64,000 nt of DNA from an uncultured Kocuria sp. (GCF_947500125.1 NZ_CANMRA010000002.1:150144-214143), one strand, 5' to 3'. Positions 3,646 through 59,425 are shown, counted from the first letter of the stretch. Numbers and translations: made by a program. Notes: generated by a model not told the origin, from the letters alone.

Positions 3646-4643
3646 GGTACGCCTACCTGGGTCCAGCCGGCACCTTCACCGAGGCCGCGCTGCTGGGCGT
3701 GGAGGGCGCCCGGGAGGCCGAGCGCCGCCCCGTGTCCTCCGTGCCCGTGGCGCTCGCGGCCGTCCGCGCCGGCGAGGTCGACGCCGCCATGGTGCCCATC
3801 GAGAACTCCGTGGAGGGCGGTGTGACCGCCACCCTCGACGCCGTGGCCTCGGGTAGCGAGCTGCGCATCGTCCGTGAGGCGCTAGTGCCCATCAGCTTCG
3901 TGCTCGTCGCCCCGCCCGGCACGGCGCTCGCCGACGTCCGCACCGTCTCCACGCACTCCCACGCCTGGGCCCAGGTGCGGGGCTGGATGGACGAGCGGCT
4001 GCCGGGCGTCGACTACGTCCCGGCGTCCTCCACGGCCGCCGCGGCGCTCGCGCTGCTGCCCGGCGGGCCGGGGCGCGAGGAGCCGGCGCGGGACGTCGGC
4101 TTCGACGCCGCGGTCTGCTCGCCCGTGGTCGTCGAGCAGCACCCCGAGCTCGAGGTGCTGGCGGAGGACATCGGGGACAACAGGGCCGCCGTCACCCGGT
4201 TCGTGCTCGTGGCCCGGCCCGAGGCTCCGCTGCCGCCGCGCACGGGCGCGGACCGGACCACGCTCGTCATCCCGCTGTGGGAGGACCGGGCCGGAGCCCT
4301 GATGGAGATCCTCGAGCAGTTCGCGACCCGGGGGGTCAACCTCTCGCGGATCGAGTCCCGGCCCACGGGCAACTTCCTCGGCGAGTACTTCTTCAGCGTG
4401 GACGTGGACGGGCACATCCTCGACGCACGCGTGGCCGACGCCCTCGAGGGGCTGCGCCGCGTCTGTCCCAGCACGCGCTTCCTGGGCTCCTATCCGCGGG
4501 CCGACCACAAGGTGGCGACCGTCGCCCGGCACCACTCCGACGGGGCCTTCCGCGAGGCGGAGGCCTGGGTCGCCGCCCTGCAGGGGCGCGACCGCCGGGC
4601 CCCGGACGCCCTGTCCGCACCGGGCGCGCCGGGACCCGCGTAA
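3642..4643 (+). CDS. pheA: Prephenate dehydratase
   Basis: YLGPAGTFTE, VPIENSVEG, TRF motif, ACT domain with LSRIESRP; GTG start overlaps the rhodanese stop (GTGA). Confidence 0.95.
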   Translation: MRYAYLGPAGTFTEAALLGVEGAREAERRPVSSVPVALAAVRAGEVDAAMVPIENSVEGGVTATLDAVASGSELRIVREALVPISFVLVAPPGTALADVRTVSTHSHAWAQVRGWMDERLPGVDYVPASSTAAAALALLPGGPGREEPARDVGFDAAVCSPVVVEQHPELEVLAEDIGDNRAAVTRFVLVARPEAPLPPRTGADRTTLVIPLWEDRAGALMEILEQFATRGVNLSRIESRPTGNFLGEYFFSVDVDGHILDARVADALEGLRRVCPSTRFLGSYPRADHKVATVARHHSDGAFREAEAWVAALQGRDRRAPDALSAPGAPGPA

Positions 4644-55709: not shown

Positions 55710-56324
55710 TCAGGACTCCGCCACGACGATGCGGCCCACCTCGGTGGAGACCCGCACCAGGGCCCGGGCGGCCCCGGCGAAGCGCCGGACGGCGCGCTCC
55801 CGCCGCATCGCGGGGATCGCCTTGTGGTTCTCGAGCAGGTGCGTCATGTGCAGCTGGTAGATGCGCTCGGACTGCTTGCCCAGCCGCAGCATCTCGTACC
55901 AGTAGTCGTCCAGGCCCTGGAGGCTGCCCAGATCGCGCATCGCCCGGGTGGTCAGCTCGGACATCCGCTCGATCACCCCGAGCTGGTCCGTGGCGTACGA
56001 GGGCGGCCGGGTGAGGGCGTAGGCGACGTGCGCCTCCCCGACGGCCAGCAGCTCCTCCGCGGCCTTGTTGAGCCAGTGCCCCAGGATGTAGACGTCCTGC
56101 CGGGGGATGGGGATCACGAACGTGGAGCGCACCGTGGTCATCACGGAGAAGTACAGGTCCGTCGACCGGGCCTCGCACTCCCGGATCGCGTCGAGGGTCG
56201 CGACGTCGATCTCGGGGGAGCCCAGCAGCTCGGAGAGGAGCCGGACGCTCTCCGTCACCTGTCCCGACATGTCGGCCAGCAGGTCCAGGACCAGCTCGTC
56301 CTCCGGGAAGATGCGAAGCGCCAT
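55710..56324 (-). CDS. DUF47 (PhoU-like PiT accessory) protein
   Basis: TFVIPIPRQDVYILG, all-helical; directly upstream of PiT. Confidence 0.85.
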   Translation of the reverse strand: MALRIFPEDELVLDLLADMSGQVTESVRLLSELLGSPEIDVATLDAIRECEARSTDLYFSVMTTVRSTFVIPIPRQDVYILGHWLNKAAEELLAVGEAHVAYALTRPPSYATDQLGVIERMSELTTRAMRDLGSLQGLDDYWYEMLRLGKQSERIYQLHMTHLLENHKAIPAMRRERAVRRFAGAARALVRVSTEVGRIVVAES

Positions 56325-56439
56325 GTGTTGACCGTCCTGGGCGTCGGGACCTGCGCCGCGGAGCACGGCGGATCCCACTGTACATGGGGCCGTCGAACGG
56401 CCCGGGGGCGCCCAGCGGTCCCGGGAGGAGGGGGAGGGC

Positions 56440-56524
56440 GGTGCCGGACCGGGAGCGCCTCTCGGCGGAAGGCCGCTCGTGGCGGCTATGTGATGGAGCC
56501 CGGGGCTGCCGCGGCCCGGCACCT
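56440..56524 (-). ncRNA. Candidate three-way-junction RNA (sRNA or cis-regulatory leader)
   Basis: 11-bp closing stem, two internal arms, own TTGGCG-N16-TACCAT promoter placing +1 at the 5' end of the stem. Confidence 0.55.
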
Positions 56525-56531
56525 GGCTCCC

Positions 56532-56559
56532 ATGGTAGTCGACGTGTCCGTGACGCCAA
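56532..56559 (-). promoter_or_regulatory. Sigma-A-like promoter TTGGCG-N16-TACCAT
   Basis: -35 at 56554-56559, -10 at 56532-56537 on minus strand. Confidence 0.55.
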
Positions 56560-56616
56560 GTCCTGCGGCTGTGGGCTCCCGCACGACCGGGCTCGCGGGA
56601 GCCGGCGCCGCGGGCC

Positions 56617-57261
56617 TCAGTCGAGGTGCCCGCGGCGCCACTGGTTCGCCGCCGCCTCGAGCTCCTCCGCGGTCCGTTCGAGCCGCTGGGTGAGGGCCAC
56701 GGTGCTCGGGACCCGCGCCGCCCCGGGGTCCACGACCGGCATCTGCCCGGGGTCGGCCAGCCGGATCCGGCCGAGCGCGATCACGCGGCAGAAGGCCGCG
56801 AACCGGTCGAGGGCGATGTCGAACTCCCCGTTGAACGCCCCGGAGAGGATCGCGTCCGCCATCGACGTGATCTCCTCCGCCCCGGGGGGCTCCGCGACAC
56901 CGGCCACCACGTGCGAGACCTGCGCGGTGCTCCGTCCCGCCGCGAAGTAGCGACCCATCCGCACCGGGTCCTTCCGGACCCCTGCCCGCAGGGCGTAGAG
57001 CCGCCACAGCGCCCCGGGCAGGGACACCGCCGGGGCCTCCGCCCACATCTCGGCGATCCCCTCCAGGCCCTGCTCGTCGGTGAGCTCGATGAGCCGCCGG
57101 CTGATCTCGGGGTCGTCGCTGGCACGCCCGCGGGAGACCAGGGCGTGGGCGGCGAGGTGGGCCGCCTCGGAGACGCGGGCCGGGTCGGGGCCGCCCTCGT
57201 GCGCGTCGAACTGCTCCGGGGAGAACTTCACCGGCTTGTGGTGGCGGGGCGCTTCGCTCAT
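56617..57261 (-). CDS. Conserved actinobacterial hypothetical protein
   Basis: MSEAPRHHKPVKF start 6 nt after TACGCT; LPGALWRLYALR, LSGAFNGEFDIALDRFAAFCRV; helical. Confidence 0.75.
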   Translation of the reverse strand: MSEAPRHHKPVKFSPEQFDAHEGGPDPARVSEAAHLAAHALVSRGRASDDPEISRRLIELTDEQGLEGIAEMWAEAPAVSLPGALWRLYALRAGVRKDPVRMGRYFAAGRSTAQVSHVVAGVAEPPGAEEITSMADAILSGAFNGEFDIALDRFAAFCRVIALGRIRLADPGQMPVVDPGAARVPSTVALTQRLERTAEELEAAANQWRRGHLD

Positions 57262-57304: not shown

Positions 57305-59176
57305 TCACCAGTCGCTCGAGGAAGCGTGCACCGCCGCGTCCCGCCACTGCTGGTCGGCCCGCTCGAAGCCGTCCCGGGCCAGGGCCTTCCACAGCCGCAG
57401 CCCCAGCGCGGGGTCCTCCTGCTCGAGCTCCGCGAGCGCCTGCGGGGGCAGCACCCGCGCGGTGACGTCGGTGACGGCGCTGAGCGTCACGTGCTGCTTG
57501 TCCCCGGAGCCGAGGGCCAGCTCCCCGAAGCTCATGCCGGGCCCGAGGACCTGCAGCTCGACGCGCTCGCCGACCGGTGTGCGCAGGGACATCGACACGC
57601 TGCCGGTGACGATGAGGTGGATGCCGGCGAAGTTCTGCCCCGTGCGCAGGATGTTCTCCCCGGCCGCCCACGTCCGCTCGACGGTCCGCGCGCGCAGGGC
57701 GCGGGCGTCCTCGGGGTCCAGCCGCGAGAACAGCTCGGACTCGACGGGCCGCACCCGGGACGGGGTGCACTCCGGTCCGCCGTGCTCCTCGAGCAGCGCG
57801 TCCTCGACCCACTTGATGGCCGCGGCCCGGCTGGGGAACACCTCCAGCGGGGGCTCGCCCCGGAAGGAGCCGGCGAAGCCCGGGTCGCTGGCCACCGCCA
57901 CCACGGTGCGGCCCGCCGCCTGCAGCTCGGCCCGGGTCTTGGCCAGGAGCGGCATGGCGTACTCGGCGATCACGTCCACCCGGCGCAGGTCCACCACCAC
58001 ATACTGGGCGTCGTAGGCGACGTCGCGGACCGTGCGGATCGCCGTCTCGGTGCCCGTGAACAGCAGGTCGCCCTGGAGCTCCACGACGACGGCGTCCTTG
58101 CCGTGCTCGGCCAGCACCGCCTCGGCCTCGGCGTTGCGGCGCACCAGTGACGGGGACTGGTCGATCGGGTAGCTGGCGCGCACCGTGGAGCGGGCCACCC
58201 GGGCGGTGTGCGTGAAGTGCAGGTCGAGGTCCTGGGAGAGCCGCTCGCAGGCGAGCACCCCGCGCACGCTGTTGCCGTGCCGGTCCAGGGGCGGGGAGAA
58301 GGTGGCCACCGCCAGCTCCCCGGGCAGGACGGCGATGATGCCGCCGCCCACCCCGGACTTCGCGGGCAGGCCCACCCGGACCATCCACTCGCCGGCGTCG
58401 TCGTACATCCCGCAGGAGCTCATCACGGACAGCACCCGGGAGACCGTCCCGACGTCGAACACCTCGTCCCCGGTCAGCGGGTTCGTGCCCGCGTTGGCGA
58501 GGGTCGCGCCCATCAGGGCGAGGTCGCGGCACGTGATGAGCACCGAGCACTGGGCGAAGTAGTCCTCGAGGGCCTGGGTCGGGTCCCCGTCGATGATCCC
58601 CGCGGAGGCCAGGAGATAGCCGAGGGCGCGGTTGCGGTCCCCGGCGTCGTGCTCCTGGGAGAGGACCTCGGGGCTGATCGCCAGCTCCCGGCCCGCGCAC
58701 CGCGAGTAGGCCTCGCGGATCCGGTCCCGGCGCAGGTCGCGGTCGCTGTCGGGGACGAGCCACGTCGAGGCGATCGCGCCGGCGTTGATCATGGGGTTGG
58801 CGGGCCGCCCGGTGCCGGGCTGCAGGGAGATCTCGTTGTAGGCGTCCCCGCTCGGCTCCACGTCCATCTTCGCGTGCACCGCCTCCGCCCCGAGGTCGGA
58901 GAGCGCGAGGGCGTAGGTGAACGCCTTGGAGATCGACTGGATGCTGAACTCGTCCCGCGTGCTGCCGGCCTCGTACACGTGGCCGTCCGCGGTGGCGATG
59001 ACGATGCCGAAGCGCTCGGTGTCGGCCTGCGCCAGCGCGGGGATGGAGGGGCTGGGCTCGCCGCCGCGGACGTCCCGCAGCTGCTCCACCACCTGCTCGA
59101 GGTACTCGGTGACGGCCGACGGGCCGAAGAGCCCCGTCTCGGCGCGTCCTTCTTCCTCGGTGCTCGGGTGCGGCAC
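57305..59176 (-). CDS. glsA: Glutaminase A with C-terminal STAS and cNMP-binding-like domains
   Basis: SIQSISK (SxxK), NPMINAGAI, GMYD, PAKSGVGGG; then STAS-like (LQGDLLF..VVDLRRV) and cNMP-like (GMSFGELAL). Confidence 0.92.
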   Translation of the reverse strand: MPHPSTEEEGRAETGLFGPSAVTEYLEQVVEQLRDVRGGEPSPSIPALAQADTERFGIVIATADGHVYEAGSTRDEFSIQSISKAFTYALALSDLGAEAVHAKMDVEPSGDAYNEISLQPGTGRPANPMINAGAIASTWLVPDSDRDLRRDRIREAYSRCAGRELAISPEVLSQEHDAGDRNRALGYLLASAGIIDGDPTQALEDYFAQCSVLITCRDLALMGATLANAGTNPLTGDEVFDVGTVSRVLSVMSSCGMYDDAGEWMVRVGLPAKSGVGGGIIAVLPGELAVATFSPPLDRHGNSVRGVLACERLSQDLDLHFTHTARVARSTVRASYPIDQSPSLVRRNAEAEAVLAEHGKDAVVVELQGDLLFTGTETAIRTVRDVAYDAQYVVVDLRRVDVIAEYAMPLLAKTRAELQAAGRTVVAVASDPGFAGSFRGEPPLEVFPSRAAAIKWVEDALLEEHGGPECTPSRVRPVESELFSRLDPEDARALRARTVERTWAAGENILRTGQNFAGIHLIVTGSVSMSLRTPVGERVELQVLGPGMSFGELALGSGDKQHVTLSAVTDVTARVLPPQALAELEQEDPALGLRLWKALARDGFERADQQWRDAAVHASSSDW

Positions 59177-59352: not shown

Positions 59353-59425
59353 GGGCCTCTAGCTCAGTTGGCAGAGCAGTGGACTTTTAATCCATGGGTC
59401 GTGGGTTCGAGCCCCACGGGGCCCA
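59353..59425 (+). tRNA. tRNA-Lys (anticodon TTT), CCA not encoded
   Basis: Acceptor GGGCCTC/GGGGCCC, D-arm AGCTCAGTTGGCAGAGC, anticodon arm GTGGA-CTTTTAA-TCCAT, T-loop GGTTCGAGCCC. Confidence 0.96.

Follow-up and report, generated by a model that had tools for sequence, protein, structure and literature searches.

The window, i.e. the whole stretch of 64,000 nucleotides analysed here, derives from a Kocuria genome, relatives of which are 80-97% identical in the protein neighbouring the region of interest. Read along the minus strand, this region comprises a gene referred to as hyp215, an intergenic region of 292 nt, a gene coding for a DUF47/PhoU_div-like protein, a PiT/PHO4 transporter gene and, in convergent orientation, pstB. 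The hyp215 gene (56617-57261, minus strand, stop codon at 56619-56617) encodes a helical protein of 214 amino acids carrying an LPGALWRLY motif; searches of Pfam, NCBIfam and the PDB sequences returned no usable match for it, and its AlphaFold model (all-helical, pLDDT 77.5) had no Foldseek match below E = 1. The DUF47/PhoU_div-like gene (56324-55710, minus strand) bears the public names 'DUF47 domain-containing protein' and 'phosphate transport regulator', and is followed by the transporter gene (55705-54692, minus strand; PHO4 Pfam domain, E = 1.5e-51).

Within the intergenic region, a strong hairpin (56574-56603, minus strand, -35.2 kcal/mol, z = -2.5), likely the terminator of hyp215, lies between the stop codon of that gene and the putative promoter of a structured RNA, which occupies positions 56433-56526 of the same strand. 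An earlier note on this DNA had described an RNA with its own promoter at this site and had interpreted it as an sRNA or a riboswitch-like leader linked to phosphate uptake. It had also remarked on a second -10 hexamer nearer to DUF47 (TACAGT, 56377-56382, minus strand), which is preceded by GTTCGAC, recurs in 13 of 14 sequences of the Kocuria alignment and is assigned here to a DUF47-PiT promoter.

Identity, strand and distribution of the RNA

A covariance model of the RNA (R1), built from 110 homologues with the revised fold described below, matched the window at 56433-56526 of the minus strand over 94 model positions (78.4 bits, E = 7e-14), and this was its sole significant match there. At other loci R1 scored 53-104 bits in the forward and at most 33 bits in the reverse orientation, and the minus-strand orientation is clear because forward scores lie around 100 bits and reverse scores do not exceed 33. 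The energy of the fold agrees with this assignment: positions 56423-56530 reach -54.5 kcal/mol on the minus strand (z = -2.76 against shuffled sequences), and the plus strand gives z = -0.01. A minus-strand structured RNA had been proposed previously, its orientation being deduced from a G-U pair in the closing stem P1, and both points are borne out, frequent G-U and U-G pairs across the family agreeing with the same strand.

Conservation upstream of DUF47 orthologues, on which the earlier note had let its proposal depend, is pronounced. In the Kocuria alignment, which sets the window beside 13 related species (14 sequences), a core of approximately 90 nt is near-invariant and the flanks drift; the core persists even in those Kocuria clades in which identity of the DUF47 protein is no more than about 50%. 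The RNA was collected in 129-130 distinct versions, and a DNA-pattern scan of metagenome contigs yielded at least 118 stretches. Most homologues were gathered with a DNA pattern that fixes an internal 12-mer and parts of the hairpin H2, so that invariance at these positions is partly built in; the same bases are nevertheless found in 29 loci reached via proteins rather than via the DNA pattern.

The RNA was found in Kocuria, Rothia, Arthrobacter, Sinomonas, Microbacteriaceae, Cellulomonas, Demequina, Actinomyces/Winkia and Arachnia. Following the upstream protein led to copies in Sinomonas, Pseudarthrobacter, Psychromicrobium, Tersicoccus, Arthrobacter, Cellulomonas and Demequina, and exact look-ups of neighbouring proteins led to Actinomyces naeslundii, A. 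oris, A. massiliensis and A. dentalis, Winkia neuii, Arachnia propionica, Leifsonia, Georgenia-like organisms and Rothia mucilaginosa, to which a hyp215 profile search added Microbacteriaceae, Cellulomonas, Demequina and Actinotalea. Judged by these homologues, the family extends over at least Micrococcales, Actinomycetales and Propionibacteriales, and the stretch highlighted in the window is, on comparative grounds, one copy of a widespread family of structured small RNAs of about 90 nt in high-GC Gram-positives.

This family is apparently an undescribed orphan, as the earlier note had suspected in recognising no named Rfam family. Screening the window with Rfam 15 (4227 models) at gathering thresholds returned only a tRNA at 59353-59425, and relaxing the search of the intergenic region to E <= 10 gave only chance-level matches to eukaryotic and archaeal families. 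Likewise, tRNAs alone reached gathering thresholds in 25 further loci, at E <= 1 no family matched in 16 loci outside the window, and ARAGORN called no tRNA or tmRNA gene within 56300-56700. Full-text literature searches, including a search with a sequence string, and motif surveys from the Breaker laboratory contained no description of the RNA that we could find. The RNA lacked the defining features of every named RNA family tested.

Other identities for the stretch were discarded. A GTG at 56522 opens a reading frame in frame with DUF47, and translation is excluded by indels in the Kocuria alignment whose lengths are not multiples of three. A repeat or mobile element was rejected on the RNA being single-copy per window and per locus; it was absent from the viral contigs searched, and in the plasmid database it occurred only on two megabase-sized Arthrobacter replicons. 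A bacterial small SRP RNA, a single hairpin with domain-IV internal loops and a GGAA-type tetraloop, was dismissed on the branched topology, the lack of an Rfam SRP match and the absence of the domain-IV motif.

Secondary structure

The structure was tested on an alignment of 110 sequences (A4), with pairs counted by alignment column. In the full revised model 92.9% of the cells are paired and 18 pairs have changed on both sides; none of 500 shuffles reached the observed pairing values, and slid controls paired in 30-51% of cells. The RNA is closed by a long helix, P1, of approximately 18-20 bp with one or two bulges, composed of three consecutive segments.

The outermost segment, P1a, joins GGUGCCGGGCC (56513-56523, minus strand) to GGUCCGGCACC (56440-56450, minus strand), the latter contributing many G-U and U-G pairs, each an A-C mismatch if the opposite strand were read. 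Compensatory changes occur in all 14 pairs of the P1 core across the 110 sequences. The earlier note had drawn exactly this pairing, including the G56515-U56448 wobble, and its P1 therefore stands with compensatory support in every pair.

Inside P1a, segment P1b joins G(C)GG (56509-56512, minus strand), in which C56511 is bulged in Kocuria, to CCC (56451-56453, minus strand). Pair counts support it both at columns 25-88 (G-C 62, G-U 27, A-U 15, other 2) and at columns 26-87 (G-C 83, A-U 6), and other lineages present GCAG/CUGC versus GCGG/CCGC. Segment P1c, which is reached past C56508, bulged directly 5' of its first strand, joins AGC (56505-56507, minus strand) to GCU (56454-56456, minus strand) through columns 29-84 (A-U 84, G-U 12, G-C 3, U-A 2), 30-83 and 31-82. 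Columns 30-83, corresponding to the base before the C-run and the base after GGCG, are G-C in 62 sequences, A-U in 38 and C-G in one, with no G-U and no A-C combination; they have the highest mutual information in the alignment, with approximately 11 changes on a rough tree. The last base of the 3' strand, G56456, could alternatively pair with C56467, which would lengthen the hairpin H3.

The helix encloses a junction of little variation. Its 5' side is the 12-mer CCCCGGGCUCCA (56494-56505, minus strand), predicted to be unpaired save for its first C and containing the palindrome CCCGGG; in the 29 protein-found loci it is invariant except for one C-to-U position in Arthrobacter-type sequences. 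The mutual-information scan of the alignment detected no partner strand for the 12-mer, columns 30-83 being the sole pair found. A variable linker of 5-7 nt ending in a conserved A (56487-56493, minus strand) leads to the hairpin H2 (GCCGC-CACGA-GCGGC, 56472-56486, minus strand), a feature of the RNAalifold consensus with an invariant stem and an NN(C/A)GA loop. Past a short linker follows the hairpin H3 (GCC-GAGA-GGC, 56457-56466, minus strand), whose loop is mostly GNRA, with some GACU, GACA and GUCA, and which abuts P1c without an unpaired base between them. The pairing of H2 and of the H3 core is a thermodynamic prediction, because these stems never vary and covariation cannot test them.

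The three-way junction proposed previously thus keeps its topology, closed by P1, and changes its interior helices, which are now P1b/P1c, H2 and H3. The former P2, combining GCGGC/GCCGC with AGCC/GGCU, has no compensatory change and is broken in 17 to 48 of the 110 sequences: AGCC/GGCU fails in 48, and an A-C mismatch would arise in each of the 17 sequences that have A at column 25. The 5' bases assigned to its outer half (GCGG) covary instead with bases of the 3' side and thereby lengthen P1. The former P3 (GAGCG/CGCUC) is compatible with the pair counts, but its changes are one-sided only; it would require column 83, which tracks column 30, to pair with an invariant G. Counted over the alignment, the P2/P3 model as a whole is inferior to the revised one.

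Promoter position and predicted transcript ends

The elements of a separate promoter named in the earlier note, TTGGCG at 56554-56559, a 16-nt spacer, TACCAT at 56532-56537 and A56524, are all present on the minus strand. The -10 hexamer, of the form TANNNT, is invariant in the 14 aligned Kocuria sequences, and the arrangement CTTGGC-N17-TACCAT is kept among them. The -35-like hexamer is less uniform: CTTGGC is kept in Kocuria and replaced by TTGACA or TTGACT in other genera, and family-wide it is weak, most loci matching two or three of six positions, particularly outside Micrococcaceae. The position of the -10 is the more general feature: in 92 of 106 loci a TANNNT ends 5-11 nt ahead of the first P1 column that is well paired, whereas control offsets, taken upstream of the element or within it, give 0-2%. 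In some lineages this position must place the hexamer in the final codons of the gene upstream. The proposal of an own promoter thus holds as regards the placement of the -10, although a strict scan for the sigma-70 consensus called no promoter in this region of the window.

Transcription is predicted to start at A56524 (56524-56525, minus strand), 7 nt past the -10 and within a conserved 'cAGGUG', as we infer from the spacing of 6-7 nt to the -10 in Kocuria species. At the other end, a pyrimidine-rich tail following P1 (56423-56439, minus strand) is, by its composition, a probable 3'-end or termination zone. Family-wide, pyrimidines make up 68% and U 26% of the 15 nt that follow P1, compared with 13-18% U elsewhere; a run of at least four U occurs in 15 of 110 tails, mostly in lower-GC genera, e.g. 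AUUUUCAUG in Arthrobacter types. The C-rich tail reported previously is present, but its sequence is unconserved, what persists being the pyrimidine richness, with U enrichment in lower-GC genera. Of the two parts of a canonical intrinsic terminator, a GC-rich stem and a U-tract directly behind it, the stem is present; a terminator scan called none in this region of the window.

Assembled contigs of RNA sequencing runs do not stop at the predicted ends of the RNA. Contigs from three soil metatranscriptomes (depth approximately 4-5) cover the element and extend 40 nt or more beyond the predicted start in the upstream direction, and one SMART-seq contig begins 16 nt upstream of that start. Contigs that cross the predicted start are neutral to mildly negative evidence for a transcription start at this site; read-through from hyp215 or contaminating DNA could be their source.

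Genomic neighbourhood, function and known RNAs

The genes surrounding the RNA differ in their constancy. In 83 of the 97 loci with enough downstream sequence for evaluation (86%), a co-oriented gene ends directly upstream of the RNA, which makes it the more constant neighbour; the upstream gene is hyp215 in 71 loci and an orphan response regulator in 12 (Actinomyces type and relatives), and in some lineages its stop codon lies only about 24 nt before P1. Downstream of the RNA, DUF47-PiT occurs in 43 loci (44%), ECF sigma/anti-sigma genes in 18 and other genes in 21, and 14 face a convergent gene, either NUDIX-histidine-phosphatase with ppk (9) or pstB (5). Only convergent NUDIX-ppk genes lie downstream in Demequina silvatica. 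In Kocuria coralli the RNA and DUF47 are set apart by an IS element, inserted 6 nt past P1 with a TTAG duplication; the insertion is absent from a related strain.

The comparative data establish, at the level of sequence, the family membership, strand, P1/P1b/P1c pairing, promoter position and single-copy state of the RNA as well as the variability of its downstream genes. On this basis we consider it probable, at roughly 60%, that a structured small RNA of approximately 90-95 nt is encoded here by a gene of its own. The RNA is read as stand-alone and not as a transporter leader because the downstream genes vary, DUF47-PiT being present in 44% of loci only, and the upstream gene is more constant. 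Transcription would start 6-7 nt past the -10, so that the first bases form the 5' strand of P1; the last conserved bases would form its 3' strand, followed by the pyrimidine- or U-rich tract. P1 would seal both ends of the RNA and probably serve as its termination helix, enclosing a near-frozen three-way junction made of the unpaired 12-mer, H2 and a GNRA-capped H3 stacked on P1c. The RNA would act in trans, and not in cis on DUF47-PiT, with the frozen junction as a putative docking surface for a conserved cellular partner. This last suggestion is made because even the H2 and H3 stems, which would be free to covary, are invariant across three orders, which a mere scaffold for a seed would not need. 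We consider a protein the most likely partner, with hyp215 as the candidate, G-rich mRNA sites the second and a small-molecule ligand the third.

The variable downstream context bears most directly on the alternative of a cis-acting leader or riboswitch of DUF47-PiT, in which the junction would bind a phosphate-related ligand, and P1 would terminate transcription when closed beside the U/pyrimidine tract and admit RNA polymerase into DUF47-PiT when open. No other single neighbour is found downstream as often as DUF47-PiT, which is also co-oriented with the RNA; where genes have been inserted, in Psychromicrobium, Tersicoccus and Arthrobacter, the RNA stays beside DUF47 rather than beside hyp215. 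A frozen junction with a covarying closing stem is also typical of aptamers, a U-rich tract lies directly 3' of P1 in lower-GC genera, and G56456, able to pair with either C56505 in P1c or C56467 in H3, is a possible switch point. Over half of the loci, however, have no DUF47-PiT downstream, and those facing a convergent gene have nothing to regulate in cis; a further group precedes ECF sigma/anti-sigma genes. In Kocuria the separate conserved -10 lies between the RNA and DUF47, the IS element of Kocuria coralli interposes itself at the same place, and the mutual-information scan shows no covarying alternative pairing of the antiterminator kind. We regard this reading as improbable, and the riboswitch-like leader offered in the earlier note finds no support in these loci. 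The other option of that note, an sRNA, fits.

The two remaining alternatives concern what a stand-alone transcript would do, or whether there is one. Actinobacteria use C-rich-loop sRNAs such as 6C, and a base-pairing sRNA in the style of 6C or RoxS could employ CCCCGGGCUCCA to pair with G-rich, SD-like GGAG sites of mRNAs, the remainder serving as scaffold and terminator. The complement of this invariant, unpaired and C-rich 12-mer indeed contains GGAG, and a promoter of its own together with a terminal stem would be appropriate to such an sRNA. Against this, the same invariance across three orders is seen in the sequences of H2, H3 and the linkers of the junction, more constraint than a scaffold requires; in the 64-kb window, matches to the complementary sequence of the 12-mer are not enriched (5 versus 2.6 expected), and the single near-match within hyp215 (56721-56732) is not retained in the closest relative. 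On balance this mode of action appears rather unlikely. Still less credit, and in our view very little, goes to the possibility that there is no independent RNA function and that the element is the 3' end, terminator or stabiliser of the upstream mRNA (hyp215, or the response regulator in Actinomyces). The co-oriented gene ending just upstream in most loci, the short distance from stop codon to P1 in some lineages and the contigs that cross the predicted start would fit such a role. Terminators, however, do not keep at least 50 invariant interior bases across three orders; the positioned -10 is conserved even where it lies inside the upstream coding region, the upstream gene varies by lineage with the RNA unchanged, and in the window a separate strong hairpin already lies 3' of hyp215.

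For the stand-alone small RNA that we favour, the recurrence of pst, pit, ppk and NUDIX genes around the element in every lineage suggests a role in phosphate or polyphosphate physiology. The phosphate link proposed previously holds to the extent of this conserved neighbourhood and does not reach beyond it to function. As a tentative extension, which we judge possible and still doubtful, the RNA might be the sensing or effector part of an undescribed phosphate/polyphosphate circuit, either as a stand-alone aptamer for a phosphate-related metabolite or as the RNA subunit of a new ribonucleoprotein with hyp215, dimerisation through CCCGGG being conceivable. If the RNA were a stand-alone aptamer of this type, it would be the first RNA sensor in the pathway.

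The original observation is real and considerably larger than had been realised: the reading as an sRNA absent from Rfam is supported, that of a leader or riboswitch is not, and comparative analysis places the locus in an orphan RNA family that is new and widespread and whose secondary structure is well supported. Across Micrococcales, Actinomycetales and Propionibacteriales the RNA approximately matches housekeeping RNAs in its conservation; these orders include common soil genera (Arthrobacter, Leifsonia, Cellulomonas) as well as oral and skin commensals (Rothia, Actinomyces, Kocuria, Arachnia). To our knowledge, the regulatory RNAs understood in Actinobacteria are few, and the pst/pit/ppk phosphate locus is not known to harbour one. 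The combination of a frozen three-way junction and a covarying closing stem makes the molecule tractable for structure determination, pull-downs and ligand screens, and the constantly adjacent hyp215, with no known fold, provides a ready hypothesis for a partner. The family merits a covariance model, given that a conserved block of 90 nt is now left blank in genome annotation.

Among known RNAs, 6C RNA (RF01066; B11 in mycobacteria) shares with the present family its small size, independent transcription, wide occurrence in Actinobacteria and an exposed C-run as the most conserved part. It differs in consisting of two tandem hairpins with C-runs of at least six C in the loops and in occupying another genomic locus, whereas the RNA described here is a three-way junction with a long 5'/3' stem and its C-rich strand in the junction, and gives no RF01066 match. 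Type I 3'-UTR sRNAs such as DapZ and MicL resemble it in lying behind a co-oriented gene, as in 86% of our loci, with a -10 before or inside the end of that gene, and in a terminal helix that is here placed to end both transcripts. At the sequence level two features of this type, the position behind a co-oriented gene and an own promoter, are found; the type also shares its terminator with the upstream mRNA and acts by seed pairing. DapZ and MicL, however, are enterobacterial, pair through a seed with the help of Hfq and show little conserved structure, in contrast with the frozen branched core of this family; we know of no Hfq in the phylum to which the RNA belongs.

Protein-docking RNAs, i.e. 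Y RNA, 6S and SRP RNA, offer a further parallel in their paired termini, which protect the ends, in an invariant interior suggestive of protein recognition and in an adjoining protein gene. Unlike them, the present family has no nearby Ro/TROVE gene (no TROVE-domain rsr/Ro gene was seen among the called genes of the Pfam-annotated loci), no domain-IV motif, no 6S-like bubble and no Rfam match, and the neighbouring hyp215 is without a known fold or RNA-binding domain. Three-way-junction riboswitch aptamers, finally, are similar in size, in a covarying P1, in a near-invariant junction with a GNRA arm and in a phosphate-themed neighbourhood. In contrast to riboswitches, this RNA has no consistent downstream gene, a predicted promoter of its own at P1 and a second one before DUF47, and no expression platform was found for it, although P1 with its U-tract could terminate transcription in some genera. 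Taken together, the RNA would work most like 6C or a 3'-UTR sRNA with its own promoter, and looks most like a riboswitch aptamer.

Conserved genes upstream of the RNA

The gene usually found upstream of the RNA and in the same orientation, hyp215 (window 56617-57261, minus strand; 4001-4636 in L144 and 4001-4630 in L145, two of the loci compared), encodes a protein of about 210 aa in which the motif LPGALWRLY is invariant. The family is conserved Micrococcales-wide, with a shorter version of 161 aa in Arachnia. No match to hyp215 was found in Pfam, NCBIfam or PDB; its AlphaFold model is all-helical (pLDDT 77.5), and a Foldseek search with this model returned no neighbour. Public records label the protein as 'DNA-directed RNA polymerase subunit beta' or 'histone acetyltransferase', names that we regard as implausible.

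Just upstream of hyp215, a tRNA is encoded on the opposite strand in four loci (L022 2712-2784, L030 2484-2556, L047 1564-1636 and L079 3038-3110), and thus the tRNA, hyp215 and the RNA constitute a small syntenic block. In L050 (9730-9802) and in the window (59353-59425) a tRNA lies a few kb upstream, in the latter case beyond a gene (57305-59176, minus strand) coding for a 623-aa fusion of glutaminase, STAS and cyclic-nucleotide-binding domains, which keeps the same place upstream of hyp215 throughout Kocuria.

Promoter and 5' UTR of the DUF47-PiT operon

The promoter region of the DUF47-PiT phosphate transporter operon (window 56377-56400, minus strand; about 2925-2960 in L015 and about 2885-2915 in L017) carries a -10 element of the form TACAGT, TAGGGT or TATGGT, immediately preceded by GTTCGAC/GTTCACC or by GTTCACTTTCACC. 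Judged by its sequence, this upstream element looks like a PHO-box-type response-regulator site, in which case the operon would be Pho-regulated independently of the RNA. In the 5' UTR of DUF47 (window 56325-56375, minus strand), a conserved CGCCGUGCUCCGCGGCG is followed by GACGCCCAGGAYGGUCA, both being invariant or nearly so in Kocuria; folded as a single sequence, this stretch was not better than its shuffles (z = 0.04).

An open reading frame starting at GTG 56522 runs through the RNA and continues in frame into DUF47 (window 55710-56522, minus strand), and gene-finding programs might call it as a protein with an extended N-terminus. The indels seen among relatives rule it out as a conserved coding sequence. 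In Kocuria coralli (L017), an IS element with a DDE transposase (1297-2706), inserted 6 nt past P1, the closing helix of the RNA, and flanked by a TTAG target duplication, cuts DUF47-PiT off from the RNA; the element is absent from L018, a contig with an identical DUF47 protein.

Lineage-specific settings of the RNA

Two Arthrobacter replicons filed as plasmids, of 1.0 Mb and 0.75 Mb, bear copies of the RNA (NZ_AP024649.1, 178582-178665; NZ_CP012477.1, 215746-215829); these replicons are chromids, or chromosomal pieces listed as plasmids. In Pseudarthrobacter-type loci (L022, about 3665-3680; L107 and L109), the palindrome GTCAA-N2-TTGAC overlaps the -35 element of the RNA's promoter, and may be an operator through which a dimeric regulator acts on the RNA in this lineage.

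In the Microbacteriaceae-type loci L044 and L065, genes for a sigma factor of the ECF class and for a transmembrane anti-sigma factor, followed by a convergent pstB, are found 80-1700 nt past the RNA, and a conserved CGAACTACTGACATGCTTAAG-like motif is located between the RNA and the sigma factor gene. From the appearance of their sequences, the two proteins are SigK/RskA-like.
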